Positions 29,227 through 47,580 of a stretch of DNA of 64,000 bases are shown in pieces. How positions within the stretch are numbered: the first letter of the stretch is position 1; the number at the start of each line of letters is the position of its first letter. Source of the DNA: a virus; the IMG/VR virus record IMGVR_UViG_3300008110_010000, positions 8,199-72,198 of that record; one strand, written 5' to 3'. The translations under genes were made by a program, and so were the position numbers. Below the pieces are notes generated by a model, which did not search any database, had not been told where the DNA came from, and saw only the letters and a program-made list of their open reading frames with translations.

Positions 29227-29249
29227 CCTTACATTTTACCCTATTTTCT

Positions 29250-30404: not shown

Positions 30405-30405
30405 T

Positions 30406-31011: not shown

Positions 31012-31014
31012 AAA

Positions 31015-31555: not shown

Positions 31556-31556
31556 T

Positions 31557-32468
31557 ATGGGACTTTATGATAACGATTATCAGGCTCTAAGACAAAAAGA
31601 GCGTGAAGAAGAAAAATTAAAACAACAATTAAAAATTAAAAAAATGATTAAAACAATCGGAGTTGCAGTTGCAGGATTTTTTCTGCTAGTATTTTTATTC
31701 ATGTCTTGCGAAAGAATTGATGCTGGACATGTTGGGGTGAAAGTTAATCTTTACGGAGACAATAAAGGGGTAGATGATGTTGTGGAAGTTACTGGGATGG
31801 TTTTTTATAATCCATTAACCCACAACATTTACGAATTTCCTACATACGTCCAGCACAAAGAATACGTTGGGGATAATTCATTTATAGTTAACTCTAAAGA
31901 TGGTTCAGAATTTCACGTGAGCCCGATTATTAACTATTCAGTTAAAAGAGAGATGGTACCAAAGATTTTTTCTAAGTATAGAAGAAATCTAGAAAGTATC
32001 GAAGAAGGATTTTTGAAGACCGCAGTATTTGATGCCTTTAGATTAGCAACAAACGTATACACTGCAGATGAGTTAATAGGCAACAGACAGAAATTTGAAG
32101 TAGAGGTCAGAAGAATTCTCGAAGATCAACTAAATAAAGAGGGATTCTACATTCAGCAATTTACGTCAAACCTAGTTTATCCTGAAACATTCAAGAAAGC
32201 TATCGAGGCAAAGAACAATGCTGTTCAATCAGCTTTAATGGCAGAAAATAAAGTTAAACAAGCTGAAGCAGAGGCTAAAATCAAAGTAGCTACTGCGGAC
32301 GGTAACGCTCAAGCGATGTTAACATCAGCTAAAGCTGAAGCTGAAGCCAATAGACTGAAGCAGCAAACAATCACCCCGATGTTATTACAATTGGAATGGA
32401 TTAATAAGTGGGACGGAAAGCTACCAGTATATGGACAAGCACCTATGCTTTATAAACCAGTACAATAA
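31557..32468 (+). CDS. SPFH/band-7 (prohibitin/stomatin-like) membrane protein
   Basis: N-terminal TM helix, then an SPFH-like core and an Ala/Glu-rich coiled coil (QAEAEAKIKVATADGNAQA) typical of band-7 proteins. Confidence 0.5.
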   Translation: MGLYDNDYQALRQKEREEEKLKQQLKIKKMIKTIGVAVAGFFLLVFLFMSCERIDAGHVGVKVNLYGDNKGVDDVVEVTGMVFYNPLTHNIYEFPTYVQHKEYVGDNSFIVNSKDGSEFHVSPIINYSVKREMVPKIFSKYRRNLESIEEGFLKTAVFDAFRLATNVYTADELIGNRQKFEVEVRRILEDQLNKEGFYIQQFTSNLVYPETFKKAIEAKNNAVQSALMAENKVKQAEAEAKIKVATADGNAQAMLTSAKAEAEANRLKQQTITPMLLQLEWINKWDGKLPVYGQAPMLYKPVQ

Positions 32469-32482: not shown

Positions 32483-33553
32483 ATGAGTATCGCCTTAACT
32501 TATGATGACATCCAATTAGTTCCTGCTTACTCTGAAGTTGTTTCCAGGAGTACAATCAATCTTAACACTTTGGTGACACGAAGATACGGATTAATTAGAC
32601 CCCTGGTGGCTTCCCCGATGGATACGGTGTGTGAACTTGACATGGCCTATAGAATTTTTCTATTCGGAGGAGTTGGATGTATCCATCGTTTCATGCCTAT
32701 TGAAAATCAATCCCGGATGATTGAGATGCTAAGATATAAAATATATGGAGACGGATTTGGTGGTCCTTTCGAGGATTGGGGAATCATGTATGACGATTGG
32801 CATTCTGAGATCAAGCAGATACCTATTATGGCAGCTGTTGGAGCTAATGGCGATTATTTGGATAGAGCAAAAAGTCTAATAAAGAATGGAGCAAATATCA
32901 TCCTCATAGACGTAGCTCATGGACATCATAAAAATGTCAAAGATGCAATCGAATCTATAAAATCTATTAGTCCCGAAATTGATGTGATAGCAGGAAATAT
33001 TGCAACACCAGAAGCTGCTCAAGATTTAGAATCGTGGGGAGCGGACGGATTAAGAGTTGGTATTGGAGGTGGATCCCTTTGTACAACTAGAGTTAAAACT
33101 GGATTTGGTATTCCTAACGTAACTTGTATAGAAGAGATATCAAAAATTGCCACAGTTCCTGTTATGGCAGATGGAGGTATTCGAACTAGTGGAGATATTG
33201 CTAAGGCTTTAGCACTTGGGGCAAGCAGTGTGATGCTAGGATCATTGCTTGCAGGGACAGAAGAATCCCCTGGACAGATAGTTGAAAAATCAACGGGTCT
33301 ATATAAAAGATACAGGGGTGCAGCATCATTAGAAACCAAAACGGTTCACGGACAAGCACAGAGAAATGTAGAGGGGGAATCTACAATTATTCCATATAAA
33401 GGAGGAGCTAAATTTGTTTTAGAGGGATTACTTGACGGGGTTAAATCTGCTCTTTCATATGCAGGTGCGGTTTGTTTGAAAACATATCACCCAAAATATG
33501 TTCAAATTACCAACGCTGGTATGAACGAAGCAAAGCCGCATCTGATAAATTAA
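32483..33553 (+). CDS. IMP dehydrogenase/GMP reductase family enzyme (no CBS insert; GMP-reductase-like)
   Basis: GADGLRVGIGGGSLCTTR (catalytic Cys loop) and ADGGIRTSGDIAKALALGASSVMLGSLLAGTEESPG are hallmark IMPDH/GuaC motifs. The 356-aa length, without a CBS pair, favours GuaC-type. Confidence 0.75.
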   Translation: MSIALTYDDIQLVPAYSEVVSRSTINLNTLVTRRYGLIRPLVASPMDTVCELDMAYRIFLFGGVGCIHRFMPIENQSRMIEMLRYKIYGDGFGGPFEDWGIMYDDWHSEIKQIPIMAAVGANGDYLDRAKSLIKNGANIILIDVAHGHHKNVKDAIESIKSISPEIDVIAGNIATPEAAQDLESWGADGLRVGIGGGSLCTTRVKTGFGIPNVTCIEEISKIATVPVMADGGIRTSGDIAKALALGASSVMLGSLLAGTEESPGQIVEKSTGLYKRYRGAASLETKTVHGQAQRNVEGESTIIPYKGGAKFVLEGLLDGVKSALSYAGAVCLKTYHPKYVQITNAGMNEAKPHLIN

Positions 33554-33603: not shown

Positions 33604-33985
33604 GGGGGTGTATTTGGCACTTGACAGACATTGGTAGTTCTTTGAGATGATGCAGGCCGAGTTAGTATTGGAAACTCGTTAATCACCTATGCAAACAATA
33701 AACGACGTAGAATTATCTACAATGACCTTCGAAGACGCTATGTCTTTCGTTGGTGCTGATTACGCAATAGCTGCCTAATCCCTCCCGCACACATCGTGGG
33801 GCTTAAAATAGAATGTGAACCCAGGTGGAATATGACTGAACCCGAAATCGAGTCATCTGAATTTGGTAGTTTAATCAGCCAACTATAAACTACATATTTT
33901 GTTTGTAAAGAAAAACAAGCTAAGCCTGTGAATGAGTTTCTTTTAACAGATGGACTGGACACCGGTTCGATTCCGGTCACCTCCA
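33604..33985 (+). ncRNA. ssrA: tmRNA (SsrA-like)
   Basis: 5' GGGGGTG pairs with 3' CACCTCC through a G3:U70 wobble, followed by discriminator A. The tRNA-like T-arm is GGTTCGATTCCGG. An internal tag frame ends ...GADYAIAA-TAA (33764-33778), like bacterial ...YALAA tags. The 3' CCA is not encoded. Confidence 0.7.
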
Positions 33986-34001
33986 CAAAAATTAATTTAA
34001 T

Positions 34002-34634
34002 ATGCAAGACAGAAAAGAATTCCCGTCGTTATTGAAATCGATGGGATTGACCAACAAGGGAGTTGAGGTTGGATCTTTTAAGGGTGACTTTGCTAAAGAA
34101 ATTCTTGAGCAGTGGCCAGGAATATTATATTTAGTGGATCCTTGGCGAGAAATGAAGGAAGAGGAGTATGACGATATTTCAAACATGAAACACCAGGGAA
34201 AAGTTTATGAAAAAACTTTTGAAAACCTAACAGGATTTGAAGAGCGAGCATTAATGATGAGAATGACATCAGATCAGGCTGCTGAATTATTTCCCGACAG
34301 GTCTTTGGATTTTGTTTATATTGACGCAAACCACACTTATGAGCATGTGAAAAATGATATCATGCTTTGGTATCCCAAAGTTAAAATAGGAGGAATTCTT
34401 GCAGGACATGATTTTTTAAAACTAGAATGCTTCAACAAAGAATCTTACGCTAATGGACAAAAGAACCACCCGATTTGGATGTGGTTAGATGGGGATTACA
34501 ATAATAGATTCTATGCTGGAATGTTTGGAGTGAATCCAGCAGTGGAAGAATTTTTGGAATATAATGGTTACGATCTTCATGTCACTAATGAGTTCACAGG
34601 AACTTGGTGGATAGTCAAAAAAAGCAATCTATGA
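34002..34634 (+). CDS. class I SAM-dependent methyltransferase (TylF/Methyltransf_24-like)
   Basis: YIDANHTYEHV and GGILAGHDF motifs. Paralogous in type to 28498..29226. Confidence 0.5.
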   Translation: MQDRKEFPSLLKSMGLTNKGVEVGSFKGDFAKEILEQWPGILYLVDPWREMKEEEYDDISNMKHQGKVYEKTFENLTGFEERALMMRMTSDQAAELFPDRSLDFVYIDANHTYEHVKNDIMLWYPKVKIGGILAGHDFLKLECFNKESYANGQKNHPIWMWLDGDYNNRFYAGMFGVNPAVEEFLEYNGYDLHVTNEFTGTWWIVKKSNL

Positions 34635-35572
34635 AAACCGCCTTTCTAAATCTCAGAAATCACAGGAAGGCTTATCTTATTTGTTCAGTTGGTCAAAGGT
34701 ATATTGATATGGTTGAAGAACTGGTCCGCCAGTTAGACAAATATTCATCATTTCCTGTTTTTTTATACTATTCGGATGGCCAGGTTAATTTTGATTTTCC
34801 CAATCTAATAAAACAGAAGTTTGAAATTGATTCCTCGATAAAGTATGAAATCGAAGGAATAAATCCAGAGAGTGTTAAAACACTAATGCTTACCACAGTT
34901 AAACCCAGGGCTTGCAAGCTTTTATTGGAAAACTATGAGGTAGATGAATTTGTCTTTCTTGATTCCGATGTTTTGGTTACACCTGCTATAGATTCTGTTT
35001 TTCTAAACTATGGCGATTCTATTTCTAACTTTCCTATTTTTCTAAGATATTCATGGGACTGGGTAACCACCAACGGAAAGCAGCATGTTGCAGATATTAT
35101 CTTAGAGAGAATTGGAATTTCTAGGGCTCCAACAGTAACCTCACTTTGTACCTGTCTTTTTATTGCAAACAGAAATTGTAAATCTTTCTTATCTGATTGG
35201 GAAAAATATTGTTCAGATCCTGAAATAATTAAGTTTGCTTTAAGTCCGGAGGGATACGGAGGATTTACCGATGAATCTGTTGCTAACGCAGTCGCTTGGC
35301 TTTATAGATGTAATATTTCCATTCCAACTAATCTTTGTTGGGCTTGGAAATATGAACCAGTGAAATATGTCTTTGATTTTTATGACGGGATAATTTCAGA
35401 TCTAGAAAGACACACTTCACAGCCGACCCATTATAAATTGAGTGGAGAAAATGAAGTACCTTTTGGTCTTTCTGTTATTCCCGAAAGAAAAAATAATTTT
35501 TTAGGATTTCATTTCATCAAAGATCTAGAGACAATTAAAAAAGTTGCAGAAGAAATAGAAAAAAGGTTCTAA
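34604..35572 (+). CDS. putative nucleotide-sugar glycosyltransferase (DxD)
   Basis: FVFLDSDVLV resembles the DxD motif of GT-A fold transferases. The assignment is weak. Confidence 0.35.
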   Translation: MVDSQKKQSMKTAFLNLRNHRKAYLICSVGQRYIDMVEELVRQLDKYSSFPVFLYYSDGQVNFDFPNLIKQKFEIDSSIKYEIEGINPESVKTLMLTTVKPRACKLLLENYEVDEFVFLDSDVLVTPAIDSVFLNYGDSISNFPIFLRYSWDWVTTNGKQHVADIILERIGISRAPTVTSLCTCLFIANRNCKSFLSDWEKYCSDPEIIKFALSPEGYGGFTDESVANAVAWLYRCNISIPTNLCWAWKYEPVKYVFDFYDGIISDLERHTSQPTHYKLSGENEVPFGLSVIPERKNNFLGFHFIKDLETIKKVAEEIEKRF

Positions 35573-35649
35573 TTTCTGAAAATTTTTCTTTTTATCTTCT
35601 ATAATCTAAAACAAAAGGAATATATAAAAATTCCTAGATCTTTAAACAT

Positions 35650-35724
35650 TGCGGGGTAGAGCAGTGGTAGCTCGCTGGGCTCATAACCCAGAAGTCGTGG
35701 GTTCGAATCCCACCCCCGCTACCA
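35650..35724 (+). tRNA. tRNA-Met(CAT), initiator-like, CCA encoded
   Basis: Cloverleaf with anticodon CAT in loop CTCATAA. The anticodon stem has three consecutive G:C pairs (CTGGG/CCCAG) and an unpaired 1:72 (T:T), both initiator features. The 3' ACCA is encoded. Confidence 0.8.
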
Positions 35725-35726
35725 AA

Positions 35727-35850
35727 AAGAAGTTGGTAGCAAACTTGTGTATGATACGTTCCGGCTTCGATTGATAATCGAAGGTATCAAAAAGGAAGAC
35801 GTCTCCGAGGTCTAATTCCCGCAAGTCCCTGCTACCTTTTTTATTGTAAC
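35727..35850 (+). terminator. long structured RNA / compound terminator downstream of tRNA-fMet
   Basis: GGTAGCA ... TGCTACC clamp around an internal perfect hairpin CTTCGATT-gat-AATCGAAG, ending in TTTTTTATT. Confidence 0.3.
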
Positions 35851-35878
35851 CATTTCGTTATTCAATCGTATAATATGC

Positions 35879-36652
35879 ATGAGCAAAAATTTGGTAATTT
35901 ATTTAAATGTCTTTGATGACATATCAAAGACAGCACAAAGTGTAGAATCGATTAGAAGAGCATGTCATCGATGGGGTGCTAATTTTTACGAGGTGACAAA
36001 CGTTCAGTATCCAAATGCACCTTATCCCTTTCTCTGGGAAACCCTTGCAGCTTTTGAAGAGTTCAATCACTATGATAAAATTTTAAATTTGGATCATGAT
36101 ATCATCATAAATTCTAATGCTCCAAACATATTTGAGGAATTAACAGATGAATATGATTTTTGTGCTGTTAGAGACGGGAATCCGGGAGGAAGATTTCCTC
36201 ATAATGATGGATTTCTAAGAGATTCTATTATAAAAACAATTAGTCACGATCAAAATTGCTTTGATCTTTTTCATAGTGTTTTAAAGAATTTTAATTATGA
36301 AAAATACTGGCAAAATTATTTTAATTTAGGTGTCTATCTATTTAACCCCAAAAAATACAATCGATTGATTAAAGAAATCAAGCAATTGGCTTTTGATGAC
36401 AAAAGAGTTTATCAAATGCTTATGGGACAGGGATTTCCTTGGCACGCATTACAGAATTTTTTTAATGCTTACATATCTTCCTCCGATCTTAAAATTAAAT
36501 TAATTGACAATACTTGGAATTGGATTATGCCAGATATATCCGAGGAATATCACGATGATTTTTATCTGGGAAAAATGAAACCAAACATCTATCATTTCTG
36601 TGGAACCCCAACATCAAAGGAGGACCTTCCTTTTTATGACAGATGGAAATAA
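35879..36652 (+). CDS. putative glycosyltransferase (DxD-type)
   Basis: ILNLDHDIIINSN contains a DxD-like motif. The assignment is weak. Confidence 0.3.
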   Translation: MSKNLVIYLNVFDDISKTAQSVESIRRACHRWGANFYEVTNVQYPNAPYPFLWETLAAFEEFNHYDKILNLDHDIIINSNAPNIFEELTDEYDFCAVRDGNPGGRFPHNDGFLRDSIIKTISHDQNCFDLFHSVLKNFNYEKYWQNYFNLGVYLFNPKKYNRLIKEIKQLAFDDKRVYQMLMGQGFPWHALQNFFNAYISSSDLKIKLIDNTWNWIMPDISEEYHDDFYLGKMKPNIYHFCGTPTSKEDLPFYDRWK

Positions 36653-36667
36653 TTAAAATGAATCGAT

Positions 36668-37315
36668 ATGGCAAATGGAGTATACAAAATTACAGAAGAA
36701 TTTGAAAAATCACTCGAAAGCTATACAGGAGCTCCACATGTTGTAACTTTAGACAATCAGAGTAACGGACTTTTTCTTTCCCTATATTATGAAAATTACG
36801 TTAAAAAGAGCATAGAAAAAGGAAGTATAAAAATTCCAAGTCGAACTTATCCTTCAGTTCCTTGCGAGATTATTCATGCTGGCCTTAAAGTAGAGTTTGA
36901 GCATGTGAAAGGTAAGACGATTAAAGGTGCATACCAACTAAAAGGGAGCAAGGTTTGGGATTCTGCATTGTGTTTTACCTATAATATGTATAAGAAAAAT
37001 ACCCATATGTGCGTTTCTTTTACTGGACCATTTAAGCATTTTAAGTTGTCTAAAGGTGGAGCAATATTAACAGATGATCATGAAGCATATCTTTGGTTTA
37101 AAAGAGCTAGATATAGTGGCAGAAGAGAATGTTCTTATCATGACGATCACTTTGATATGCTGGGATGGAATTTTTATATGATGCCAGAATTAGCAGCAAG
37201 GGGTTTACTCATGATGGGACAATTTTATGATCCTACAACGGGAAAACCTAAAAACAATCCAGATCTGGAACTACCATATCCAGATTTATCAAAATTTGAT
37301 ATTTATAAAAAATGA
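36668..37315 (+). CDS. hypothetical protein
   Basis: 215-aa ORF with no motif recognised. Confidence 0.3.
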   Translation: MANGVYKITEEFEKSLESYTGAPHVVTLDNQSNGLFLSLYYENYVKKSIEKGSIKIPSRTYPSVPCEIIHAGLKVEFEHVKGKTIKGAYQLKGSKVWDSALCFTYNMYKKNTHMCVSFTGPFKHFKLSKGGAILTDDHEAYLWFKRARYSGRRECSYHDDHFDMLGWNFYMMPELAARGLLMMGQFYDPTTGKPKNNPDLELPYPDLSKFDIYKK

Positions 37316-39495
37316 GTAAAAAATTATCTATAATAATTCCCTCACTAAACAGGGAAAAATTACTTATAAGTTCTATCAATAGCATAGTAGAAATTTTTAA
37401 TTCATTCAACTTTCAAGATTATGATGTACATGCTATAGTAAATGGGTCAAACAAAAATACAACAGAAAAAATTAGAGAGAATATTTTTTTACATCATCAT
37501 GAAAAAAAATTGAATCCTGGAATAGCGAGAAATATAGGAATTGAAAAAAGCGACTCTGAGTGGATTTGGTTTATTGACGACGACGATGAAATAGTAGGTG
37601 AAAACATATCAAAAGTAATAGATTTTTTATACGACAAAAATGGTAATCATGGATTCGATTTAATAGCTCATTCTTTAAAAAATAAATACATTCCGGAAGA
37701 TAATAAGAGATCTCTATTGGAAAATGTTTGTTTTTTTAAAGAAAAACAGGAGGCATTCAATTACATTTTCAAAAGAGATTTAATAAAAAAGCATAATATA
37801 TTATTTTCCGACGGATTACACGAGGATATCAGATACGTAACAGAACTGATAATAAATTCCTCCATCATTAAAATATTTGATTTTTTCCTGTATAAAAAAA
37901 TTAACCGGGATGATTCGATAACTAAAAATCTCAATCCATCTAGAATAGATGGATATTTACTAGCAATCAGCGAGATTCAATCACTAGATAGCGATGAAAT
38001 TTCTTCGATGTCTAATGGAATAGTGACACAGTGTCTAGGAACTATCCTATATCTAATAAACAAATCCCAAAATAAGTTGGAGCTACTAGAATATCTGGAC
38101 AGCAAATTCACATTTTATCTAAGATCAAAAATAACCGAAACGTATAGTGAAAAAGATACTAATTTCAAATACGCTGTTTCTCTTTACATTAATAAGAAAG
38201 ACAATCTAGTATTTCTTGAAAGATTAAACGAATGCTTTTCTAGCTATCTCTCTTGTAGAGATCTAAAAAACTCAATATTTCTTGGTCCGAAAGAAATAAT
38301 AGGATGCTGTAAAAGATTCTTTTATAATGGTAAGATGAAGGGTGACATCGTTTTAATGTCGGAATCAATAGATGTTAATTTAGATTCTATACTTAAAAGA
38401 AAGGCTGAGGTTGAAGATGGGATAAATTCACAGACATATGAACCTTGTGAGGGGTGCCCTTATATAGAAAGATATAGTAGATTAGAAAATAAAAAAATAA
38501 ACTACATAAGCTTAGAAAATTTCACTTATTGCAACATGCGTTGTACTTATTGTTCTCCTAAATATTATGGGGGTAAAGAAGCAGTATACAACACTCATGA
38601 TATAATTAGTCAATTAATAGATGGTGAATATCTTGACGATAAAGTACACGTTGTTTGGGGAGGGGGAGAGCCAACATTACAAAGGGAATTTGGGGAAATA
38701 ACAGAGAAACTAATAAACATAGAAAATGTCTATAAGATAAGAGTTCTTACAAACAGTCTAAGATTTTCAAACGATCTTTATAACCTAGCATCGAATGATA
38801 AAATAAGGATAGTTACTAGTATAGATGCAGGAACTCAAGATGTATTTAAAAATATCAGGGGAAAAGGAGAAATTTTAACAGTTTTAGAGAACCTAAAAAA
38901 ATATACAGAGCAAACCAAGGATCCAGAGAATCTAACTTTAAAATACATTCTAACTGAACAAAACTATCATTCCAATCAGTTAGAACAATTTGTAAAAACT
39001 ATAAAAGAATTTGGATTTGAAAACAATTTTGTCCAAATAAGTTGTAATTTTTTATATGATCATCTGGGTGATGAGATAATATTTTCAATATACGAATTAG
39101 CAGCTAGACTATTAAATAATGGATTTAAGTTTGTTTATTTTGATGATTTAATCCGTGACAGATTAGCTATAAGTGAGGATATTGCGGATAAAGTAATCAA
39201 TTATTTGTCGGAAAAATACCTCTATCACGATGATATAATTTCTTATAAGAGTAATAAACGGGTAGTTCTTTGGGGAGATGGATACCAATCTAGATGGATA
39301 AAAAACAGCACAACCTTTGGAAAATCTAATAAAATAAGGGGAATCGTTTCCGATATAAATGGATTTAACAATTTGAATTTAAATGTGGGTTTTACAGTAT
39401 CCCCTGCCGCAATCCAACAATTACCAGACATATTTAAGGAAATTAAGAAGGAAAAAGATGTCTATAATAAATTGAAATTCCACATATTTCTATAA
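37312..39495 (+). CDS. fusion protein: N-terminal GT2-family glycosyltransferase + C-terminal radical SAM domain
   Basis: LSIIIPSLNREKLL and FIDDDDE (GT2 DxD) in the first ~250 aa. C-terminal half has FTYCNMRCTYC (C-x3-C-x2-C) and a VVWGGGEPTL glycine-rich SAM motif. Confidence 0.6.
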   Translation: MSKKLSIIIPSLNREKLLISSINSIVEIFNSFNFQDYDVHAIVNGSNKNTTEKIRENIFLHHHEKKLNPGIARNIGIEKSDSEWIWFIDDDDEIVGENISKVIDFLYDKNGNHGFDLIAHSLKNKYIPEDNKRSLLENVCFFKEKQEAFNYIFKRDLIKKHNILFSDGLHEDIRYVTELIINSSIIKIFDFFLYKKINRDDSITKNLNPSRIDGYLLAISEIQSLDSDEISSMSNGIVTQCLGTILYLINKSQNKLELLEYLDSKFTFYLRSKITETYSEKDTNFKYAVSLYINKKDNLVFLERLNECFSSYLSCRDLKNSIFLGPKEIIGCCKRFFYNGKMKGDIVLMSESIDVNLDSILKRKAEVEDGINSQTYEPCEGCPYIERYSRLENKKINYISLENFTYCNMRCTYCSPKYYGGKEAVYNTHDIISQLIDGEYLDDKVHVVWGGGEPTLQREFGEITEKLINIENVYKIRVLTNSLRFSNDLYNLASNDKIRIVTSIDAGTQDVFKNIRGKGEILTVLENLKKYTEQTKDPENLTLKYILTEQNYHSNQLEQFVKTIKEFGFENNFVQISCNFLYDHLGDEIIFSIYELAARLLNNGFKFVYFDDLIRDRLAISEDIADKVINYLSEKYLYHDDIISYKSNKRVVLWGDGYQSRWIKNSTTFGKSNKIRGIVSDINGFNNLNLNVGFTVSPAAIQQLPDIFKEIKKEKDVYNKLKFHIFL

Positions 39496-39521
39496 TAGAA
39501 TATTTTTAAAGAGAATTATAA

Positions 39522-40622
39522 ATGAAAAATAAAAAATTAAAAGTTTCTGTCATAGGAGGGGGTATAAATTCTGCAGTGGGATACGCACACTATTCTGCTA
39601 TTAAGCTTTCAAACAAGTTCGAGATAACCTGCGGAAATTTTAGCAGAAATTCAAAGACTAATAGGGAAAGCGCTGAAATATATGGAGTGAATAAAGTTTA
39701 TAGCGACTATAGGACTATGCTGTTGGAAGAAAAAAATAATATAGATGCAGTTGTAATATTAACCCCTACGGATCAGCATTATGATCAGTTAGACCTTGCA
39801 ATAAGCTTAGGAATCCCTATTGTTTGTGAGAAATGCTTGATCGCTAATAATTTGGAATTAGAAAAACTGAAGGAGAAACAATCTAATAATTTCATAGCAG
39901 TTGTTTTCAATTATCTCTGTTATCCTATGTTGAAGGAATTAAAAAGCATAATTGATTCGGGTGGAATTGGAAAAATTTTACAGATTCAAATCGAGATGCC
40001 GCAAGAAGGATTTCTTAGGCACATGAACGGATTACCACTTAAACCACAAAAATGGAGATTAGTGGATGGAAGAGTTCCCACCCTTTCTCTTGATCTAGCA
40101 ACGCACACATATTCTATAGTAAGATTTTTAACATCACAAAATCCTTTAGAGGTTATTGCAGTCGAAAGTAGTTTTGGAAATTTTCCTGGAATAGTTGATG
40201 ATATAAATTGCATAATTAAATACACGAATGATATAATTTGTAATATGTGGTATAGTAAAACCGCATTAGGGAATAGAAATGGATTAAGGGTTAGAATATT
40301 TGGGTCTGATGGAAGTGCAGAATGGTACCAATTAGAACCAGAAGTAATTCACATGTCAGATAAAAGTGGAAAGATATCTTTGCTAGATAGGGGATCTGAA
40401 GGATTATTAACAGCTAATGAATTCAAATATAATAGATTCAAAGTTGGGCATCCTGTAGGATTTATTGAATCCCTCGCTAATTTTTATGAGGACGTCTATG
40501 ATGATTTTAAAAAAAGTCATGATGATCGCGTTACATATGGTCTAGAGCAATCAGAGGAGTGTATTAAACTGCTAGAGGCAATATCTAAGTCATCCGAAGA
40601 AAAATCTTGGCAATCCTTATGA
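39522..40622 (+). CDS. Gfo/Idh/MocA-family NAD(P)-dependent oxidoreductase
   Basis: N-terminal Rossmann KVSVIGGGINSAVGYAH with Gfo/Idh/MocA-like architecture. Confidence 0.5.
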   Translation: MKNKKLKVSVIGGGINSAVGYAHYSAIKLSNKFEITCGNFSRNSKTNRESAEIYGVNKVYSDYRTMLLEEKNNIDAVVILTPTDQHYDQLDLAISLGIPIVCEKCLIANNLELEKLKEKQSNNFIAVVFNYLCYPMLKELKSIIDSGGIGKILQIQIEMPQEGFLRHMNGLPLKPQKWRLVDGRVPTLSLDLATHTYSIVRFLTSQNPLEVIAVESSFGNFPGIVDDINCIIKYTNDIICNMWYSKTALGNRNGLRVRIFGSDGSAEWYQLEPEVIHMSDKSGKISLLDRGSEGLLTANEFKYNRFKVGHPVGFIESLANFYEDVYDDFKKSHDDRVTYGLEQSEECIKLLEAISKSSEEKSWQSL

Positions 40623-41782
40623 AAAAAATTTTACTGCTCGATACTAACGTTTCATCGTTTCCTATTTATAATTTTTTGGTTAACGAGGGATATGAAGTTT
40701 ATGTTGCTGGATCAAAAGAAAATGATTGTCTGGCAAAATGCTCTACTAATTATATTTTTTTAGACTATTCCAGAATAGAAGAATTAAACAAAATAATTGA
40801 AGATTATAAATTTGATTATATTGTTCCAGGGTGTAACGACATGTCTTATGCTTGTGTTACTAAAATAAATAAATCTAGAAAATTTCCTGGATTAGATCCG
40901 ACTGAAATTTGCGAAACTATTAATAATAAATCGATGTTTAGAGATTTTGCAATTTCGAATGGATTAAATGTTCCCAAGGTTTATTCTTTAAAAGATGCTT
41001 ATTGTGTTAATGTTCCACTAATAATAAAACCAGTTGATGCTTATAGCGGGAGAGGGATTTCTATAGTAAACGAACCAAACAAGATGTTACTAGATTTGGC
41101 TGTTGAAAATGCTATAAAATTTTCAAAAGACAAAAAATATGTAATAGAAGAATACAAAACAGGTCAGCTATACAGTCATTCTGCATTTATAGAAAACAAA
41201 AAGATAGTAAAAGATTTTATAGTTGTAGAAAATTGTACTGCCAATCCTTTTACTGTGGATTCTAGTTATGTTGTACATGATGACTTTCCTGTTAATTTGC
41301 TAGAATCAATAAGGAAAGATATAGAGATAATAGCAAAAATTTTAAAATTAGAGGATGGTCTTATTCATACGCAATTTATAAGGTCTGGAGATTCTTTTTA
41401 TATAATAGAGGTTACCAGAAGATGTCCGGGGGATTTGTATAGCTTGCTGATTGAAAAATCTACAAATTTTAAATATTCACAAAATTATGTTAGACCTTTT
41501 ATTGGGAAAAAAATAATACAATCCACATCAGAAGAAATTAAAAAATACATTTTTAGACACACTATATCTAGCGATGCAGACCTTTTTTCGATTGGAATTG
41601 AATTTAAAAACGAATTGGATATAGATTTATACATTTCTCTTTCTGTTACTGGGGATGAAATGAAAAAATCACCATTCAGTAGATTTGGTCTGGTCTTCAT
41701 TAAATGTAACGATCAGAAGGATCTTGAGAATAAATACGGCCTAGCTTTGAGGAGAGAACTATATTATTATAAGAGTATATAG
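40607..41782 (+). CDS. ATP-grasp family ligase
   Basis: PLIIKPVDAYSGRGISIV is an ATP-grasp phosphate-binding loop. N-terminal pre-ATP-grasp domain. Confidence 0.5.
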   Translation: MAILMKKILLLDTNVSSFPIYNFLVNEGYEVYVAGSKENDCLAKCSTNYIFLDYSRIEELNKIIEDYKFDYIVPGCNDMSYACVTKINKSRKFPGLDPTEICETINNKSMFRDFAISNGLNVPKVYSLKDAYCVNVPLIIKPVDAYSGRGISIVNEPNKMLLDLAVENAIKFSKDKKYVIEEYKTGQLYSHSAFIENKKIVKDFIVVENCTANPFTVDSSYVVHDDFPVNLLESIRKDIEIIAKILKLEDGLIHTQFIRSGDSFYIIEVTRRCPGDLYSLLIEKSTNFKYSQNYVRPFIGKKIIQSTSEEIKKYIFRHTISSDADLFSIGIEFKNELDIDLYISLSVTGDEMKKSPFSRFGLVFIKCNDQKDLENKYGLALRRELYYYKSI

Positions 41783-41798
41783 AGATATTTTTATAGAA

Positions 41799-42122
41799 AT
41801 GATTACAGTAACTGAAAAAGCAGCACAAAGAATTAAATACCTAATAGAAGAAGCAGAAGATTCTAAGTTTTATCTAAGAGTATCTGTTAAAGGGGGAGGA
41901 TGTAGCGGACTTTCATATGATTTATCATTTGATGACGAGATGAACGAAAAAGACACTCTTTATGAAGATAAAGCAGTTAAAATATTAGTGGATAATAAAT
42001 CCATTCTTTATCTGTTTGGAACTGAACTAGACTTCTCTGACGGACTTAACGGTAAGGGATTTCAGTTCGTAAATCCTAATGCCTCCCGCACATGTGGATG
42101 TGGAGAAAGCTTTGCTGTGTAG
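41799..42122 (+). CDS. A-type iron-sulfur cluster carrier (IscA/HesB/ErpA family)
   Basis: 107 aa with a GGGCSG block and C-terminal RTCGCGESF: the three conserved Cys of HesB/IscA. Confidence 0.75.
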   Translation: MITVTEKAAQRIKYLIEEAEDSKFYLRVSVKGGGCSGLSYDLSFDDEMNEKDTLYEDKAVKILVDNKSILYLFGTELDFSDGLNGKGFQFVNPNASRTCGCGESFAV

Positions 42123-42138
42123 CTTGATATATAGCTAC

Positions 42139-42831
42139 ATGATAAAGGGGTTTTCTGAATACATTAACGAAGCTTATAGCAATCCTAAAAATTATACGGA
42201 TTTAAAATACGGAAATCCACAAAAGTGGCAAAAAGAAGCCATGGACAGAGGATCTAACCTTTTAAAATCTGTCAAAGAATCAAATCTTTGGGAAAAATGG
42301 ACTTCTAGTTTACCTCCCAATCAAGATTCAGAGGAGGTAAAATCCGATTTACAAAATTTAATTCTCATGGGAAATTCTTTAACCGAGGAGGAAAAAGAGT
42401 TTGTAAAGGATTCAGAAAATGATATGCTAGGAATCTTTGAGAAATTTTTAAAGTTAAATGGGGTTGATTCTATTAAGAAAGAAGATTTGGAATCGGTAAC
42501 AGATGAATTGGATCCGATCACTTTTATTTTAAAATATCAGTTTAACTATCCTAGACCACTTCAACTGGCTCTTGTCCACGACATACCCCTTTATCCAGAG
42601 CAGCCAACTAACGCTTGCAGTCCCGCTTATCCTTCCGGACACTCAATAGATGCTTTTGTGATTGCTGGATTGATTGCTAAAAAATACCCTCAACTTGCCG
42701 ATGATGTTTCTAAGCTTTCTGAAAGAGTTTCTATGACTAGAAACCTGGGAGGAATACATTTCACGTTTGATTCATCCTTTGGTAAAGAAATAGCAGAAGA
42801 TATACTTTCTTTGGATCTTTTATCCCTTTAG
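42139..42831 (+). CDS. PAP2-superfamily phosphatase (acid phosphatase/haloperoxidase-like)
   Basis: NYPRP, YPSGHS and SRVSMTRNLGGIHFTFD match the K-x6-RP / PSGH / SR-x5-H-x3-D PAP2 motifs. Start moved to the internal ATG at 42139 to avoid overlap with the IscA-like gene. Confidence 0.55.
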   Translation: MIKGFSEYINEAYSNPKNYTDLKYGNPQKWQKEAMDRGSNLLKSVKESNLWEKWTSSLPPNQDSEEVKSDLQNLILMGNSLTEEEKEFVKDSENDMLGIFEKFLKLNGVDSIKKEDLESVTDELDPITFILKYQFNYPRPLQLALVHDIPLYPEQPTNACSPAYPSGHSIDAFVIAGLIAKKYPQLADDVSKLSERVSMTRNLGGIHFTFDSSFGKEIAEDILSLDLLSL

Positions 42832-42948
42832 AAAAATAGTTTAACCGATTAAACTTTCCCGTTTGTTTTATTGAATATATAAATTGGGCTTGATAAAAGG
42901 ATATCTCATTGATACACTAATCATGCTGGAGAAATTGTATGAATTATT

Positions 42949-45900
42949 ATGGCAAATTATAGAATTTTAGGACAAGAAACTGTTAACAATTCGGTAAGTC
43001 CGGGACCTACCCTTGTAACACTTTATACGGTTCCTCAAAATGCTTCCATTCTAATCAATGCAATAACCGGATATAATGAGGGATTTAATAGTGGATATCT
43101 TACCGTTGCAGTAAAAAGGAACGGGGACGAGGACTATTCTCCAGATCAAATTGTTATAAATACTCCCTTAGCACCCGGTGCTTCAATACAAATTTCTCCT
43201 CAATTTTCTCCTGTTGGTTTAACTGCCGGCGACGTAATACTTTTAGTTGGTAATTATTCTCCTGCCCCTACAACAGTAGCGGTAACCTTATTCGGTGAAG
43301 ACGGGGCTTCTAGCGGTGGATCCGGCAATGCAGGAACATCCGGAACTTCAGGAAACAGTGGGGGCTCAAGTACTTCAGGAAGTAATGGTACTAGCGGGAC
43401 TTCGGGAACTAATGGATCTACAGGAACTGGTGGTACTAGTGGTACCTCTGGAATGAACGGATCTATCGGAACTAATGGTACGAGTGGAACCTCAGGTGAA
43501 ACCTTCGGAACTAGTGGAACGTCAGGGGCAGCTGGTGCTCCTGGAGCAGCGGGATCTTCTGGAACATCTGGGGTTTCCGGAGCATCTGGTTCTTCTGGAA
43601 CCTCTGGGGTTTCCGGAGCATCCGGTTCTTCCGGAACATCGGGAAATTCAGGTTCTTCTGGAACATCTGGGATTTCCGGGGCATCTGGTTCTTCCGGAAC
43701 ATCAGGAAATTCGGGATCCTCTGGTACATCAGGAAATTCGGGAACCTCTGGTACTTCGGGAGAATCTGGTTCTGCTGGTACATCCGGATCATCTGGAACA
43801 TCAGGAAACTCCGGGTCATCCGGTACATCAGGAAACTCCGGGTCCTCCGGTACATCAGGAAATTCGGGAACCTCTGGTACTTCTGGGGAATCTGGCTCTT
43901 CTGGAACATCAGGATTCTCTGGGTCCTCCGGAACATCAGGAAACTCCGGGTCATCCGGTACATCAGGATCCTCTGGAGAACCCGGTTCTGCCGGAACATC
44001 GGGATCCTCAGGTACATCTGGTACATCAGGAAACTCCGGGTCATCCGGTACATCAGGGTCATCCGGTACATCAGGGTCCTCTGGTACATCTGGTGCTGAT
44101 GGTACATCCGGTTCTTCCGGAACCTCGGGAAACCCTGGATCATCAGGGACCTCTGGAACATCAGGAAACTCTGGATCATCGGGGACCTCCGGATCCGCTG
44201 GAACTTCTGGTTTAAGCGGAATATCTGCAGGACAGATTTATTATTTTAACCAATCTCAGTCTTCTGACATTTCTCCATATAAAGTCCTTAGTGTTTACCC
44301 ATCAGGAGCTGCTGAACAAACAGTTCCTATGGTATTAACGGGCGGGCAATTGAATGTTCTGGTAAGTCAATTCCTGACCCCCGAATTGGGATTTGCTGTA
44401 ATTCCACCAGGCACTCAGAGATTTCATCTGCATTTTTTAAAACAACAGTTTAATGATGACATAGATGGCTATGTTACCATAGAACTTGCAAATTCGTCAG
44501 GTGTAGGATATGGCACTATTATTCAATCAAACAAAGCTTTAATTGGATGGGTGAGTGTTTCTCAATCTTATGAGCTGTTGGTTGATATTGTTTTACCTTC
44601 AGTATACATAAACACCACAGACAGAATGATTGTCAAGGTTTACGTTGACAATAATGAAGCAACCGTCAGAAATTTAACTTGGTACACAGAGGGGGCTCAA
44701 AACTATTCATATGTAATCACATCGGTTGGAGCAATTGTAGCAAGCTCTGGAACGTCAGGGAGTTCTGGAACTAGTGGATCAAGCGGAACTTCGGGATCCG
44801 GGGGTTCATCAGGAACTAGCGGATCTAGTGGATCGGAGGGAACTTCAGGTAGCTCTGGTACTTCCGGCAGTTCTGGAACCTCTGGAGAAGATGGAACTTC
44901 AGGTAGCTCTGGTACTTCCGGCAGTTCTGGAACCTCTGGAGAAGATGGAACTTCGGGATCTGGGGGTTCATCAGGAACTAGCGGATCTAGTGGATCGGAG
45001 GGAACTTCAGGTAGCTCTGGTACTTCGGGAACCTCTGGAGAAGATGGAACTTCAGGTAGCTCTGGTACTTCGGGAACCTCTGGAGAAGATGGAACTAGTG
45101 GATCTTCAGGTACATCAGGAACCTCGGGGGTGTGCGAGTGTCCACACAGCTACACTATCACGGCTCCAACGGATATCACGTGTTACTCTTTAACAAATGA
45201 CGGAGATCCCGACAACGTAAATAGTACAAACTATCTCGATTGTAACGGGAATCCTGCGGTCATTTACAATAAAATTTTTCTCACACCAGCTACTTATTTC
45301 TGTGCTCAGACCGGATCTGTTACAACTGATTCGGGGCTCACTGTAATATCAGTACCTGATGATCCTGGATCTTGCGACGGATGTTGCGATGGATATGCTT
45401 ATTCTTATACCGACGAAACAGATACTATCATAAGTGGAATCATATATGACGGAGAATCTCTAACTTTCTGTGCGATCCCAGGATCTGTAGTTTGGTCCCA
45501 TACAATAGTAGACAATGGGCATTGTGTAGGAAGTTCAGGTACTTCCGGCAGTTCTGGTTCGAATGGTACGTCAGGTAGCTCTGGTACTTCCGGCAGTTCT
45601 GGATCTTCTGGGACATCAGGAACTGATGGTTCCTCCGGTAGTACAGGTACTTCTGGTTCTTCCGGCAGTTCTGGATCTTCTGGGACATCAGGAACTGATG
45701 GTTCCTCCGGTAGTACAGGTACTTCTGGATCCTCAGGGTCATCTGGAACTTCCGGAACTGATGGATCTTCAGGTACATCAGGTAACTCTGGTTCTTCTGG
45801 AACCTCAGGATCAGCAGGTACATCAGGAAATGAGGGTCCCCCTGGATCTTCGGGAACGTCAGGAATTGATGGAACCAACGGATCGACAGGTTCTTCTGGA

Positions 45901-47580
45901 ACCTCAGGAAACTCTGGTTCTTCAGGTACTTCAGGTACTTCAGGTAGTTCTGGTTCAACTGGTACTTCAGGTAGTTCTGGTTCTTCTGGAACCTCTGGTT
46001 CTTCTGGTTCAACTGGTACTTCAGGTACTTCAGGTACTTCCGGTAGTTCTGGTTCAACTGGTACTTCAGGTAGTTCTGGTTCTTCTGGAACCTCAGGAAA
46101 CTCTGGATCTTCTGGAACCTCTGGAGCATCAGGATCTTCTGGAACCTCAGGAAACTCTGGTTCTTCTGGAACCTCTGGAGCATCAGGTAGTTCTGGTTCT
46201 TCTGGAACCTCTGGAGCATCAGGATCTTCTGGAACCTCAGGAAACTCTGGATCTTCTGGAACCTCAGGAAACTCTGGATCTTCTGGAACCTCTGGAGCAT
46301 CAGGATCTTCTGGAACCTCAGGAAACTCTGGATCTTCTGGAACCTCTGGAGCATCAGGATCTTCTGGAACCTCTGGAGCATCGGGAGCTAATGGATCTTC
46401 TGGAACCTCTGGAGCATCAGGATCTTCTGGAACCTCTGGAGCATCAGGAGCTAATGGATCTTCTGGAACCTCTGGAGCATCAGGAGCTAATGGATCTTCT
46501 GGAACCTCAGGAAACTCTGGTTCTTCTGGAACCTCTGGAGCATCAGGAGCTAATGGATCTTCTGGAACCTCAGGATCTTCTGGAACCCGAGGTTCCTCAG
46601 GAACTTCAGGAGCTTCCGGTGGAAACGGAACATCCGGAACTTCAGGAGCTTCCGGGGGAAGCGGAACATCCGGAACTTCGGGAGCTTCTAGTTCAGCAAT
46701 ATCTAGTAATAACATCGACAACTATGTTGTTACCATGACTGGAAACAATTCCACGCCTTTCCAAGGGGAGCCTAACTTAACATTCGATAATACGAGACTT
46801 TTTGTAACTGGGAAAGTAAGGGTTTATCAAAATCCATTAAGCATAAGTTCAGGAAGTCTTTCTTGGCCTTTAAGATCTGGAGCAAATGCAACAGTTACTT
46901 TAAATCAAAATGTAACTACGTTTACACTTAGCGAATTTGAAGCTGGAGATACTGGGGTATTAATAGTAAAACAAGATGCTACTGGAGGTAGAACAATGGT
47001 ACTTCCCTCTAGTTCACAAGTAGTTGGAGGAGGATCTTATACCCCAACATCCGCTGCAAACTCACAAGACGTTCTTGGAGTTTACTACGACGGAACAACA
47101 TATTTCTGGACCATTGGGCTCGCTAGTGTTACAGGTAACTTACTTACAATAAACAATAATGCAGATCACAGAATATTGACTGCAACTGGTAGTGCTACTT
47201 CGATAGACGGAGAAACAGGATTGACTTATAACAGCAGTACATTAGCAGTAACTGGAGCAATCACAGCAACAGGAGATATCACTGCTTATTCATCTTCGGA
47301 TGAAAGATTAAAGGATAATATTTCGGTTATTCAGGATGCTTTGGAAAAGGTCTCTAGCATAAGAGGAGTGGAATTTGATTGGAACGACAAGGCTCATGAA
47401 GTTAATAGAGGTCACGATCTTGGAGTAATTGCTCAAGAGCTGATTAAAGTTCTTCCTGATGCAGTTAAAGAAAGAGAAGATGGATATTATGGGGTAAGAT
47501 ATGACAGAATTATACCTCTTCTCATAGAGGCTATAAAAGACTTAAGAAAAGAAATAGAAGAACTTAAAAGAGAAAAATAA
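42949..47580 (+). CDS. collagen-like (G-S/T-S/T repeat) fibre protein with Cys-rich insert and C-terminal intramolecular-chaperone (peptidase S74) domain; putative tail fibre
   Basis: Three long Gly-X-Y blocks (GTSGSSGTSGNSG...) where X and Y are almost only Ser/Thr/Asn/Ala. A Cys-rich non-repeat segment (CECPHSYTITAP...CDGCCDGYAY...) interrupts them. The C-terminal SSSDERLKDNISVIQDALEKV...GVEFDW matches the S-D-x-R-L-K-x-N-I autoproteolytic chaperone motif of phage tail fibres/endosialidases. Confidence 0.7.
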   Translation: MANYRILGQETVNNSVSPGPTLVTLYTVPQNASILINAITGYNEGFNSGYLTVAVKRNGDEDYSPDQIVINTPLAPGASIQISPQFSPVGLTAGDVILLVGNYSPAPTTVAVTLFGEDGASSGGSGNAGTSGTSGNSGGSSTSGSNGTSGTSGTNGSTGTGGTSGTSGMNGSIGTNGTSGTSGETFGTSGTSGAAGAPGAAGSSGTSGVSGASGSSGTSGVSGASGSSGTSGNSGSSGTSGISGASGSSGTSGNSGSSGTSGNSGTSGTSGESGSAGTSGSSGTSGNSGSSGTSGNSGSSGTSGNSGTSGTSGESGSSGTSGFSGSSGTSGNSGSSGTSGSSGEPGSAGTSGSSGTSGTSGNSGSSGTSGSSGTSGSSGTSGADGTSGSSGTSGNPGSSGTSGTSGNSGSSGTSGSAGTSGLSGISAGQIYYFNQSQSSDISPYKVLSVYPSGAAEQTVPMVLTGGQLNVLVSQFLTPELGFAVIPPGTQRFHLHFLKQQFNDDIDGYVTIELANSSGVGYGTIIQSNKALIGWVSVSQSYELLVDIVLPSVYINTTDRMIVKVYVDNNEATVRNLTWYTEGAQNYSYVITSVGAIVASSGTSGSSGTSGSSGTSGSGGSSGTSGSSGSEGTSGSSGTSGSSGTSGEDGTSGSSGTSGSSGTSGEDGTSGSGGSSGTSGSSGSEGTSGSSGTSGTSGEDGTSGSSGTSGTSGEDGTSGSSGTSGTSGVCECPHSYTITAPTDITCYSLTNDGDPDNVNSTNYLDCNGNPAVIYNKIFLTPATYFCAQTGSVTTDSGLTVISVPDDPGSCDGCCDGYAYSYTDETDTIISGIIYDGESLTFCAIPGSVVWSHTIVDNGHCVGSSGTSGSSGSNGTSGSSGTSGSSGSSGTSGTDGSSGSTGTSGSSGSSGSSGTSGTDGSSGSTGTSGSSGSSGTSGTDGSSGTSGNSGSSGTSGSAGTSGNEGPPGSSGTSGIDGTNGSTGSSGTSGNSGSSGTSGTSGSSGSTGTSGSSGSSGTSGSSGSTGTSGTSGTSGSSGSTGTSGSSGSSGTSGNSGSSGTSGASGSSGTSGNSGSSGTSGASGSSGSSGTSGASGSSGTSGNSGSSGTSGNSGSSGTSGASGSSGTSGNSGSSGTSGASGSSGTSGASGANGSSGTSGASGSSGTSGASGANGSSGTSGASGANGSSGTSGNSGSSGTSGASGANGSSGTSGSSGTRGSSGTSGASGGNGTSGTSGASGGSGTSGTSGASSSAISSNNIDNYVVTMTGNNSTPFQGEPNLTFDNTRLFVTGKVRVYQNPLSISSGSLSWPLRSGANATVTLNQNVTTFTLSEFEAGDTGVLIVKQDATGGRTMVLPSSSQVVGGGSYTPTSAANSQDVLGVYYDGTTYFWTIGLASVTGNLLTINNNADHRILTATGSATSIDGETGLTYNSSTLAVTGAITATGDITAYSSSDERLKDNISVIQDALEKVSSIRGVEFDWNDKAHEVNRGHDLGVIAQELIKVLPDAVKEREDGYYGVRYDRIIPLLIEAIKDLRKEIEELKREK
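43309..46690 (+). repeat. coding tandem repeats (9-nt GGN-based collagen-like units with higher-order ~54-66 nt repeats)
   Basis: Blocks at ~43309-44210, 44764-45124 and 45541-46690. They create many spurious overlapping ORFs on both strands. Confidence 0.8.

Follow-up and report, generated by a model that had tools for sequence, protein, structure and literature searches.

Our analysis of a 64,000-nucleotide stretch of viral DNA (IMG/VR record IMGVR_UViG_3300008110_010000, positions 8,199 to 72,198; hereafter the window) points to a portable four-gene glycan-tailoring module which, by comparison with a syntenic relative, is inserted together with a GT8-family glycosyltransferase between tRNA-Met and iscA, within the glycosylation island of a large freshwater phage rich in tRNA genes. 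The four genes encode a shortened DegT/DnrJ/EryC1-like pyridoxal phosphate (PLP) protein (mini-DegT), a fusion of a family 2 glycosyltransferase (GT2) with a radical S-adenosylmethionine (SAM) enzyme, a Gfo/Idh/MocA oxidoreductase and an ATP-grasp ligase. Together they would constitute an amino-sugar pathway with a virion protein as its target, and to this reading as a whole we assign a probability of roughly 0.55. PHROG matches, an endolysin and a fiber with an S74 domain identify the window as phage DNA; it also carries 21 tRNAs and a tmRNA.

The fusion is encoded, in DNA with a GC content of 29%, by one unbroken open reading frame (ORF) whose ATG overlaps the stop codon of the upstream mini-DegT gene (ATGA). 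Both halves score well above their Pfam cut-offs, the first as Glycos_transf_2 (residues 6-110, 65.2 bits vs. 23.3) and the second as Radical_SAM (PF04055; residues 405-540, 66.2 bits vs. 29.5). The initial annotation had proposed a single 727-residue GT2-radical-SAM protein and had named a hidden stop or frameshift, or a failure to reach the radical-SAM hidden Markov model (HMM) thresholds, as what would speak against it; neither was found, and the proposal stands. Independent freshwater metagenomes yield the identical protein on at least 21 contigs, and more than 100 full-length homologs of 715-810 aa align with it end to end; a frameshift or assembly artifact can therefore be discounted.

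In an alignment of 32 homologs of 33-73% identity, conservation spans the whole length of the fusion, beyond the two Pfam domains. Invariant throughout are the cluster-binding CX3CX2C motif (C407, C411 and C414) and the SAM-binding GGE-type motif (G450-G451-G452-E453-P454). A full-length AlphaFold2 model based on the same alignment (mean predicted local distance difference test score, pLDDT, 91.7; predicted template modeling score, pTM, 0.84) is composed of a GT-A domain with a helical extension, Cys-rich hairpins, a partial-barrel radical-SAM core and a small alpha/beta domain; the strands at residues 311-350 are modeled with a pLDDT above 86. The structures nearest to the glycosyltransferase half are TarP, RmlT and TarS, with 267 residues aligning to TarP, and the radical-SAM half is a canonical partial barrel. 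Thus, the HMM score, the GT-A fold, the DXD motif and conserved acidic residues place the first half in the GT2 family, and the HMM score, the cluster motif and the partial (beta/alpha)6 barrel place the second in the radical-SAM superfamily, in sequence and in fold. From the pattern of conservation, the E171-D172 region probably provides the acidic catalytic base of the glycosyltransferase half, and the Cys-rich hairpins (residues 311-385) constitute a candidate auxiliary Fe-S site that may bind a cluster. Five invariant cysteines lie N-terminal to the core and C578 after it; a PF13186 match is absent from the fusion. Membership in two named radical-SAM families was considered and rejected: the core aligns weakly to the N_Twi_rSAM model NF033640 (45.7 bits vs. 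170), covering only model positions 100-311 without the N-terminal twitch part, and four true members of that family lie on the opposite strand of the window; the match to the MoaA GTP 3',8-cyclase model TIGR02666 (56-58 bits vs. 284) is likewise confined to the core.

How widespread is this architecture? Scanned exhaustively with phmmer, 1.84 billion representatives yielded 159 clusters at E<=1e-30, some 100 of them full-length fusions and some 40 free-standing proteins (about 430 aa) corresponding to residues 310-690; among 5.8 billion clustered proteins there are 177 matches, mostly full-length (715-770 aa) with both domains. The fusion is rare, as had been supposed at the outset, yet it is a real conserved family and not a one-off, spanning Proteobacteria, Planctomycetota, Campylobacterota and phages. 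A pattern scan with one genome per species finds it in 22 bacterial species, and its carriers include Neptuniibacter, Aquabacterium, Azospirillum, Rhizobium, Vibrio, Pseudoalteromonas, Helicobacter, Sulfurimonas, Hyphomonadaceae, Planctomycetaceae, SAR11 and Prochlorococcus. A split version exists in five SAR11/Prochlorococcus loci, where a GT2 gene (312 aa) directly precedes a stand-alone radical-SAM gene (about 430 aa), which speaks for joint action of the two halves. In 50,697 deposited phage records, tblastn with the fusion gave no full-length match and weak matches to the radical-SAM half only, and the region itself was unmatched by megablast; the viral structure models of BFVD contain no full-length match either (TMq <=0.30), only single domains.

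The order mini-DegT, fusion, Gfo/Idh/MocA, ATP-grasp recurs in five other phage-like loci (L013, L014/L019, L017, L018 and L020) at 53-80% identity. These loci have almost only the four genes in common with the window, the extras being an IscA and a kinase-like ORF (42% identity) in L014 and a short methyltransferase match in L020. Because they otherwise hardly resemble the window, the four genes can be regarded as a portable unit. The mini-DegT proteins of the six phage loci, the window included, measure 209-215 aa; those of the other five are 62-80% identical to the one studied here and lie directly upstream of the fusion in four cases and about 1.4 kb upstream in L017. Judged by gene order, the conserved unit is therefore 36668-41782. 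The initial annotation had drawn a self-contained, co-linear pathway from the fusion through IscA and a PAP2 phosphatase: the co-linear sugar-modifying set holds, its boundaries do not, as it begins with mini-DegT and ends with the ATP-grasp ligase, and the recurrence of the gene order elsewhere, which it had suggested looking for, extends to the four-gene core and leaves IscA and PAP2 out.

Bacterial relatives add a functional setting. Across 32 non-redundant loci of the fusion family, clustering of the neighboring genes finds Gfo/Idh/MocA in 24, a full-length DegT in 19, a mini-DegT in 5-6, ATP-grasp in 17, an RmlB-like dehydratase in 13, and RmlA and a long Methyltransf_24 protein in 8 each. 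An AMP-forming ligase, often with a hexapeptide acyltransferase, is found in 11 loci, nine of which are devoid of ATP-grasp, and this replacement supports a carboxylate-activation step. The variant with AMP-forming ligase and hexapeptide-repeat acyltransferase in place of ATP-grasp is seen in bacterial loci L016/L027, L022-L025, L032, L035 and L042-L044; L010 and L037 carry an additional KdsA/DAHP-synthase-like gene. The bacterial sets, with their full-length DegT and often RmlA/RmlB and a methyltransferase, lie in surface-glycan loci. In Neptuniibacter, the order is FlaG-FliD-FliS-TPR/GT41-RmlB-RmlA-DegT-Gfo-ATPgrasp-fusion-MT24-FleQ, and tetratricopeptide-repeat (TPR)/GT41 or FliD/FliS neighbors are also found in Burkholderiales, Aquabacterium, Pseudoalteromonas and Hyphomonadaceae. 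Proteins of this type, in which a TPR part is joined to a glycosyltransferase, act as flagellin O-glycosyltransferases (FlmG, PMC7591256). By their neighborhoods, the bacterial module loci thus have recurrent ties to flagellar genes and TPR-type flagellin O-glycosyltransferases, some of them being flagellar islands.

The partners of the fusion are of differing completeness. Aligned with bacterial DegT proteins, mini-DegT retains D98, S117 and the PLP lysine K123 but lacks the C-terminal domain, some 30 residues at the N-terminus and an internal stretch of 42 aa, so that about 150 residues of the normal fold are gone; the family HMM match and the PLP lysine are present, and the complete fold-type-I architecture of about 370 aa is not. 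The Gfo/Idh/MocA protein is a clear family member (PF01408, 47.6 bits vs. 24; PF02894, 54.3 vs. 22.9; PF22725, 60.6 vs. 27) that stays below every equivalog cut-off. Its orthologs, at 40-47% identity, adjoin the fusion in Aquabacterium, Rhizobium, Sulfurimonas, Helicobacter, Planctomycetaceae and Hyphomonadaceae. The ATP-grasp ligase matches PF13535 (ATP-grasp_4; 34.3 bits vs. 27) and falls short of the sugar-transfer-associated subfamily PF14397 (24.9 vs. 31.4); among solved structures it is closest to an L-amino-acid ligase and a PurD-like protein, and its full-length identity with the fusion-adjacent ligases is 32-43% for the closer bacterial loci and 27% for Helicobacter and Planctomycetaceae. 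As no GT8 homolog stands beside the module in the other phage loci that carry it, the GT8 gene is, by this comparison, inside the insertion but outside the conserved core.

The insertion is delimited by a relative, L048, which is syntenic with window positions 24604-32468 and continues with tmRNA, tRNA-Met, IscA, PAP2 and collagen-like genes. By blastn, L048 8023-8411 corresponds to window positions 33604-33992, 8406-8603 to 35644-35842 (89%) and 8631-9692 to 41799-42830 (68.5%), leaving two insertions on either side of tRNA-Met (Table 1). Direct repeats at the insertion borders amount to AT-rich chance matches only. A GC-rich direct repeat of 18 nt, CCTAAT[C/G]CCTCCCGCACA, is identical at 17 of 18 positions; one copy lies inside the tmRNA (33774-33791) and the other where iscA ends (3' end, 42075-42092), so that the two enclose both insertions without adjoining their borders. 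Only contigs of this phage carry the pair, and no exact copy exists in L048. A gene of the IMPDH/GMP-reductase family (32483-33553, 327 bits), also absent from L048, forms an accessory insertion between Band_7 and the tmRNA.

Table 1. Features of the window, with positions counted from its first nucleotide and residue numbers referring to the fusion protein; the value after "vs." is the model cut-off
Feature	Position	Strand	Evidence or remark
Triple-domain protein: cupin (mannose-6-P isomerase C-terminal type), sugar-1-phosphate nucleotidyltransferase, APH-like kinase	11247-13178	-	
Four tandem N_Twi_rSAM (NF033640) genes	16305-17474, 17456-18793, 19703-21262, 21914-23296	-	306-331 bits vs. 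170
tmRNA, backbone landmark	33604-33988	+	RF00023, 79.5 bits (Rfam); ARAGORN
Further insertion relative to L048, between tmRNA and tRNA-Met	33993-35643	+	blastn borders; tmRNA and tRNA-Met adjacent in L048
Methyltransf_24 gene in this insertion	34002-34634	+	PF13578, 61.6 bits
322-aa protein, unassigned family, in this insertion	34604-35572	+	
tRNA-Met (CAT), backbone landmark between the two insertions	35650-35724	+	
Insertion relative to L048: GT8, mini-DegT, GT2-radical-SAM, Gfo/Idh/MocA, ATP-grasp	35843-41798	+	blastn borders; no counterpart in L048
GT8-family retaining glycosyltransferase, 257 aa	35879-36652	+	Glyco_transf_8, 37.1 bits vs. 24.3 (Pfam)
mini-DegT, shortened DegT/DnrJ/EryC1-like PLP protein, 215 aa	36668-37315	+	PF01041, 39 bits vs. 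19.8, N-terminal part only
GT2-radical-SAM fusion, 727 aa	37312-39495	+	one unbroken ORF
GT-A (GT2) catalytic domain, residues 1-230	37312-38001	+	invariant D89, D91, D92 (DXD), H120, E171-D172
Helical linker, residues 231-310, continuous with the TarP/TarS-like glycosyltransferase module	38002-38241	+	AlphaFold2 secondary structure
Cys-rich beta-hairpin region, residues 311-385	38242-38466	+	invariant C315, C332, C333, C379, C382
Radical-SAM core, residues 386-620	38467-39171	+	C407-X3-C411-X2-C414, GGGEP 450-454, C578, all invariant
C-terminal small alpha/beta (Rossmann-like) domain, residues 640-727	39229-39495	+	invariant WGxGxQ motif
Gfo/Idh/MocA NAD(P)-dependent sugar oxidoreductase, 366 aa	39522-40622	+	three Pfam domains
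ATP-grasp carboxylate-amine ligase	40619-41782 (ATG, 387 aa) or from TTG 40607 (391 aa)	+	ATG overlaps the Gfo stop
A-type Fe-S carrier IscA/ErpA	41799-42122	+	TIGR00049, 127.7 bits vs. 58.8; ErpA equivalog NF010147, 126.9 vs. 117
Soluble PAP2-family phosphatase, 230 aa	42139-42831	+	Pfam, 28.2 bits vs. 27.2 (marginal)
Collagen-like fiber with C-terminal S74 chaperone domain, 1543 aa	42949-47580	+	Collagen, 333 bits; Peptidase_S74, 58.7 bits (Pfam)
UDP-galactopyranose mutase glf	57934-59022		about 50% identical to annotated Streptococcus suis phage glf; phrog_9677, 419 bits

What could such a module do? As far as their sequences tell, its enzymes are intact, have conserved catalytic motifs and are inherited together, with the bacterial versions residing in nucleotide-sugar and protein-glycosylation loci. 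Gfo-type enzymes oxidize sugar hydroxyls, DegT-type enzymes transaminate keto-sugars, and ATP-grasp ligases form amides via acyl-phosphates. We infer that the module builds an N-acylated amino sugar, which is then transferred and further modified in a radical step. The Gfo/Idh/MocA enzyme would oxidize a hydroxyl of a nucleotide sugar to a ketone, the DegT-type PLP protein would transaminate the ketone to an amine, and the ATP-grasp ligase would join the amine to a carboxylic or amino acid as an amide, a task that would elsewhere fall to the AMP-forming ligase and the hexapeptide acyltransferase. The TarP/TarS-like inverting GT-A half of the fusion would then pass the sugar to a growing glycan, and the radical-SAM half, with one SAM cluster and a probable auxiliary cluster on five or six invariant cysteines, would abstract a hydrogen from the same sugar, leading to oxidation, deamination, epimerization or C-C bond formation. 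The product would most likely be placed on a surface protein, in the phage on a virion protein.

The prime candidate for this protein is the Ser/Thr-rich collagen-like fiber encoded downstream. It consists of Ser, Gly and Thr to 60%, and this composition, together with the service of bacterial homologs to a surface filament protein and the precedent of BclA, makes it by analogy a plausible glycosylation target. In the BclA-anthrose system of Bacillus anthracis, BclA is a collagen-like, Thr-rich surface filament protein O-glycosylated with an oligosaccharide, whose cap is an N-acylated, O-methylated 4-amino-4,6-dideoxy sugar in whose synthesis a DegT-type aminotransferase takes part (PMC6222408, PMC7793302). 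This glycosylated collagen-like fiber bears on the phage protein by analogy, and glycosylation of the latter is a candidate modification. Unlike the phage module, the ant operon is not known to contain a radical-SAM enzyme or an ATP-grasp ligase. Among otherwise near-identical contigs (L001, L004), the fiber is 1543, 1552 or 1570 aa long, implying that the copy number of its collagen repeats varies; long antisense and out-of-frame ORFs inside its gene are repeat artifacts. Three tRNA-Ser genes and a tRNA-Thr gene lie 1.3-2.3 kb downstream of the fiber gene and two tRNA-Gly genes about 10 kb downstream, within a tRNA region at 35650-57899, a set that may feed the translation of this Ser/Gly/Thr-rich protein.

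Several observations weigh against an amino-sugar pathway aimed at the virion. The truncated phage DegT may be inactive as an aminotransferase, and, as two Gfo subfamilies accompany the fusion across the loci, the oxidoreductase step may differ between them. The radical-SAM fold, as modeled, leaves the substrate class unfixed, since its structural neighbors include the peptide- and protein-modifying PFL-AE, SkfB and anSME as well as the sugar-modifying BlsE and DesII. No protein O-glycosyltransferase of the TPR/GT41 type was found in the window, nor a FliD or FliS homolog, so that the linkage typical of a flagellin glycosylation island, seen for bacterial homologs, is absent. Adjacency of module and fiber is limited to this phage and not found in the other phages with the module, and relatives with a similar collagen-like fiber are without the module at this site; the link to fiber glycosylation is thus weak and no more than suggestive. 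Finally, full-text searches, within their incomplete coverage of the literature, turned up no description of the fusion family or the gene set. A bolder version, in which the fusion represents a new bifunctional class that couples glycosyl transfer to radical C-H functionalization of the same sugar and whose module was captured by jumbo phages for their own virion glycan, here on the fiber, appears to us tentative and rather doubtful; if true, it would imply an undescribed sugar structure and the first radical-SAM-dependent virion glycan.

A serious rival to virion decoration is that the module remodels a host surface glycan (flagellin, lipopolysaccharide or capsule) during infection, which could block superinfection or the sticking of progeny to debris. 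The bacterial counterparts do lie in flagellin and surface-polysaccharide loci, the glycosyltransferase half does resemble the cell-wall-polymer decorators TarP, TarS and RmlT, and the module is an accessory indel, as would be expected of genes for host interaction. However, the island around it encodes its own sugar-activation enzymes and many glycosyltransferases, and no flippase or Wzx/Wzy-type gene was found among the ORFs scanned in the region. We consider host remodeling a possibility to be reckoned with, at odds well short of even.

Could the six genes from the fusion to PAP2 instead form one pathway for the downstream fiber, with IscA loading the clusters and PAP2 dephosphorylating an intermediate or a lipid carrier? 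The initial annotation had listed a Gfo/Idh/MocA oxidoreductase, an ATP-grasp ligase, IscA and PAP2 between the fusion and the fiber, and all six ORFs are indeed there, on the plus strand and at the positions given. They are co-linear and tightly spaced, within a tight run of plus-strand ORFs at 34002-47580, and no terminator-like site was found on the plus strand within 35879-42949. IscA, whose family assignment is clear and whose translation shows the three conserved cysteines (motifs CSG and CGCG), would be a sensible Fe-S helper, and in the amidation of the Campylobacter capsule an aminotransferase, an ATP-grasp ligase and a phosphatase cooperate. Synteny, however, argues otherwise. L048 has IscA and PAP2 (9001-9693) right after tmRNA and tRNA-Met without the module, and the more distant relative L049 has PAP2 (9001-9696) before collagen-like fiber genes, again without it. 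In L014, 5.4 kb separate the end of the module from the IscA gene, which neighbors NifU, and no PAP2 homolog occurs in the other approximately 30 loci that carry the fusion. For these reasons IscA and PAP2 are, on comparative grounds, backbone genes outside the module, and their membership in the pathway was rejected. Predicted promoters and terminators are no more numerous than in shuffled sequence, so that operon structure is not established. The six-gene pathway is thus improbable; IscA may plausibly supply Fe-S clusters to all five radical-SAM enzymes of the region, four N_Twi_rSAM paralogs and the fusion, and not to the module specifically.

The PAP2 protein itself, marginal by its Pfam score, has all catalytic motifs of the family, KX6RP (KYQFNYPRP), PSGH and (S/T)RX5HX3D (TRNLGGIHFTFD), and the solved structures closest to it are those of class A acid phosphatases (E=2.7e-5). 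A protein search returned 71 homologs, several on contigs of 100-233 kb, although a pattern scan of IMG/VR had found none; as nearly all of them are 230 aa long, we place the start at 42139 and not at 42079. No signal peptide is evident, and the gene stands just upstream of the collagen-like fiber genes, directly in the window and one ORF away in L048 and L049.

Synthesis of a free small molecule, either an aminocyclitol- or aminoglycoside-like compound or a glycosylated ribosomally synthesized and post-translationally modified peptide (RiPP), is very improbable. The pathways to 2-deoxystreptamine and butirosin use parallel enzyme classes (inositol dehydrogenase, DegT, a BtrN-type radical-SAM dehydrogenase, a glycosyltransferase and ATP-grasp), inositol 2-dehydrogenase is the top-scoring NCBIfam model for the Gfo protein (68.5 bits, far under the cut-off), and SunS and SkfB are among the structural or sequence neighbors of the fusion. 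Against this, none of the loci examined contains a gene for a cyclitol synthase, a precursor peptide, an exporter or resistance, and the frequent RmlA/RmlB and TPR-GT41 neighbors point to nucleotide sugars and protein glycosylation; a RiPP or glycocin maturase was rejected for the lack of a precursor or exporter gene and for the sugar-nucleotide context. Phage DNA glycosyltransferases and pathways of thymidine hypermodification with PLP and radical-SAM enzymes help phages to escape restriction. That the module hypermodifies the DNA of the phage by adding an unusual sugar or amino acid, for which phage glycosyltransferases, PLP enzymes and radical-SAM enzymes offer a precedent (Pyle et al. 2024, as cited in PMC12619734), is hardly credible here, as the bacterial homologs of the module are chromosomal and have RmlA/RmlB, methyltransferases and flagellar genes around them, and no hydroxymethylase, DNA kinase or aGPT-Pplase gene adjoins the module. 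Like the small-molecule route, it is made unlikely by the bacterial contexts.

The glycan-tailoring module can be set against several known systems. TarP, TarS and RmlT, GT2-type glycosyltransferases of wall teichoic acid and structurally nearest to the GT-A half at only 16-21% identity, are devoid of a radical-SAM domain. Among sugar-modifying radical-SAM enzymes with auxiliary clusters, BtrN, DesII, BlsE and AprD4 differ from the fusion in that its extra cysteines are mostly N-terminal to the core and not in a C-terminal twitch or SPASM region, and in that it has no family-level HMM match, MoaA being the best at 56 bits vs. 284; none of the four is known to be fused to a glycosyltransferase. 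Viosamine-type flagellin glycosylation islands are found in Pseudomonas and Burkholderia. The islands of FlmG type (PMC7591256) resemble the setting in Neptuniibacter, where the fusion homolog lies between FliS and FleQ with RmlA, RmlB and DegT; the phage, in contrast, has neither flagellar genes nor a TPR/GT41 homolog. Within the incomplete coverage of the literature search, no described flagellin island was reported with a glycosyltransferase-radical-SAM fusion. Chloroviruses and mimiviruses possess glycan pathways of their own, and glycosylation of virions is on record for mycobacteriophages (Freeman et al. 2023, as cited in PMC12619734). In such virus-encoded systems, glycosyltransferases and sugar-nucleotide enzymes decorate the virus's own particles, and the fusion is without a full-length counterpart in the viral models and phage records searched.

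The surroundings of the module are rich in genes of the same kind. The window is largely a glycan island, with two GT7-LamininG proteins, further glycosyltransferases, methyltransferases, the cupin/nucleotidyltransferase/kinase fusion and glf. The triple-domain protein looks like a one-protein route of sugar activation. A minus-strand block at 24604-29226 encodes two paralogous GT7 (beta-1,4-galactosyltransferase-like) plus Laminin_G_3 proteins, a GT2_4-like protein and a Methyltransf_24 protein; as it is conserved in L048, it belongs to the backbone part of the island. The first two N_Twi_rSAM genes have N-terminal SPASM matches, and their array (16305-23296) is interleaved with a DUF6071 protein and a LamininG-like protein. 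A 624-aa protein (5408-7282, minus strand) ends in a Hint/intein-like domain (AXH, Intein_splicing and PT-HINT matches).

Phage-encoded glycan pathways and sugar-tailoring radical-SAM enzymes are each already known as kinds; what the literature searches, within their incomplete coverage, did not turn up is a conserved GT2-radical-SAM bifunctional enzyme with a fixed set of partners that is common to flagellin-type islands and jumbo phages. Sugar-tailoring radical-SAM enzymes are few, and each has revealed new chemistry. A family in which such an enzyme is welded to a glycosyltransferase and accompanied by an oxidoreductase, a PLP enzyme and a carboxylate-amine ligase is thus a defined lead to a new sugar modification, and since the module is also present in cultivable bacteria (e.g. 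Neptuniibacter pectenicola LFT 1.8, NZ_LUTS01000004.1, 56.8-79.1 kb, where it lies within the region of the flagellar regulon), its chemistry can be tested without the uncultured phage. For the phage, the module would enlarge an already big glycan toolkit. Large freshwater phages would appear to exchange whole glycan-tailoring modules with bacterial surface-glycosylation islands, and insertion at hot spots flanked by tRNA and tmRNA genes, near the genes of receptor-binding fibers, may bear on host range and on the evasion of immunity and defense.

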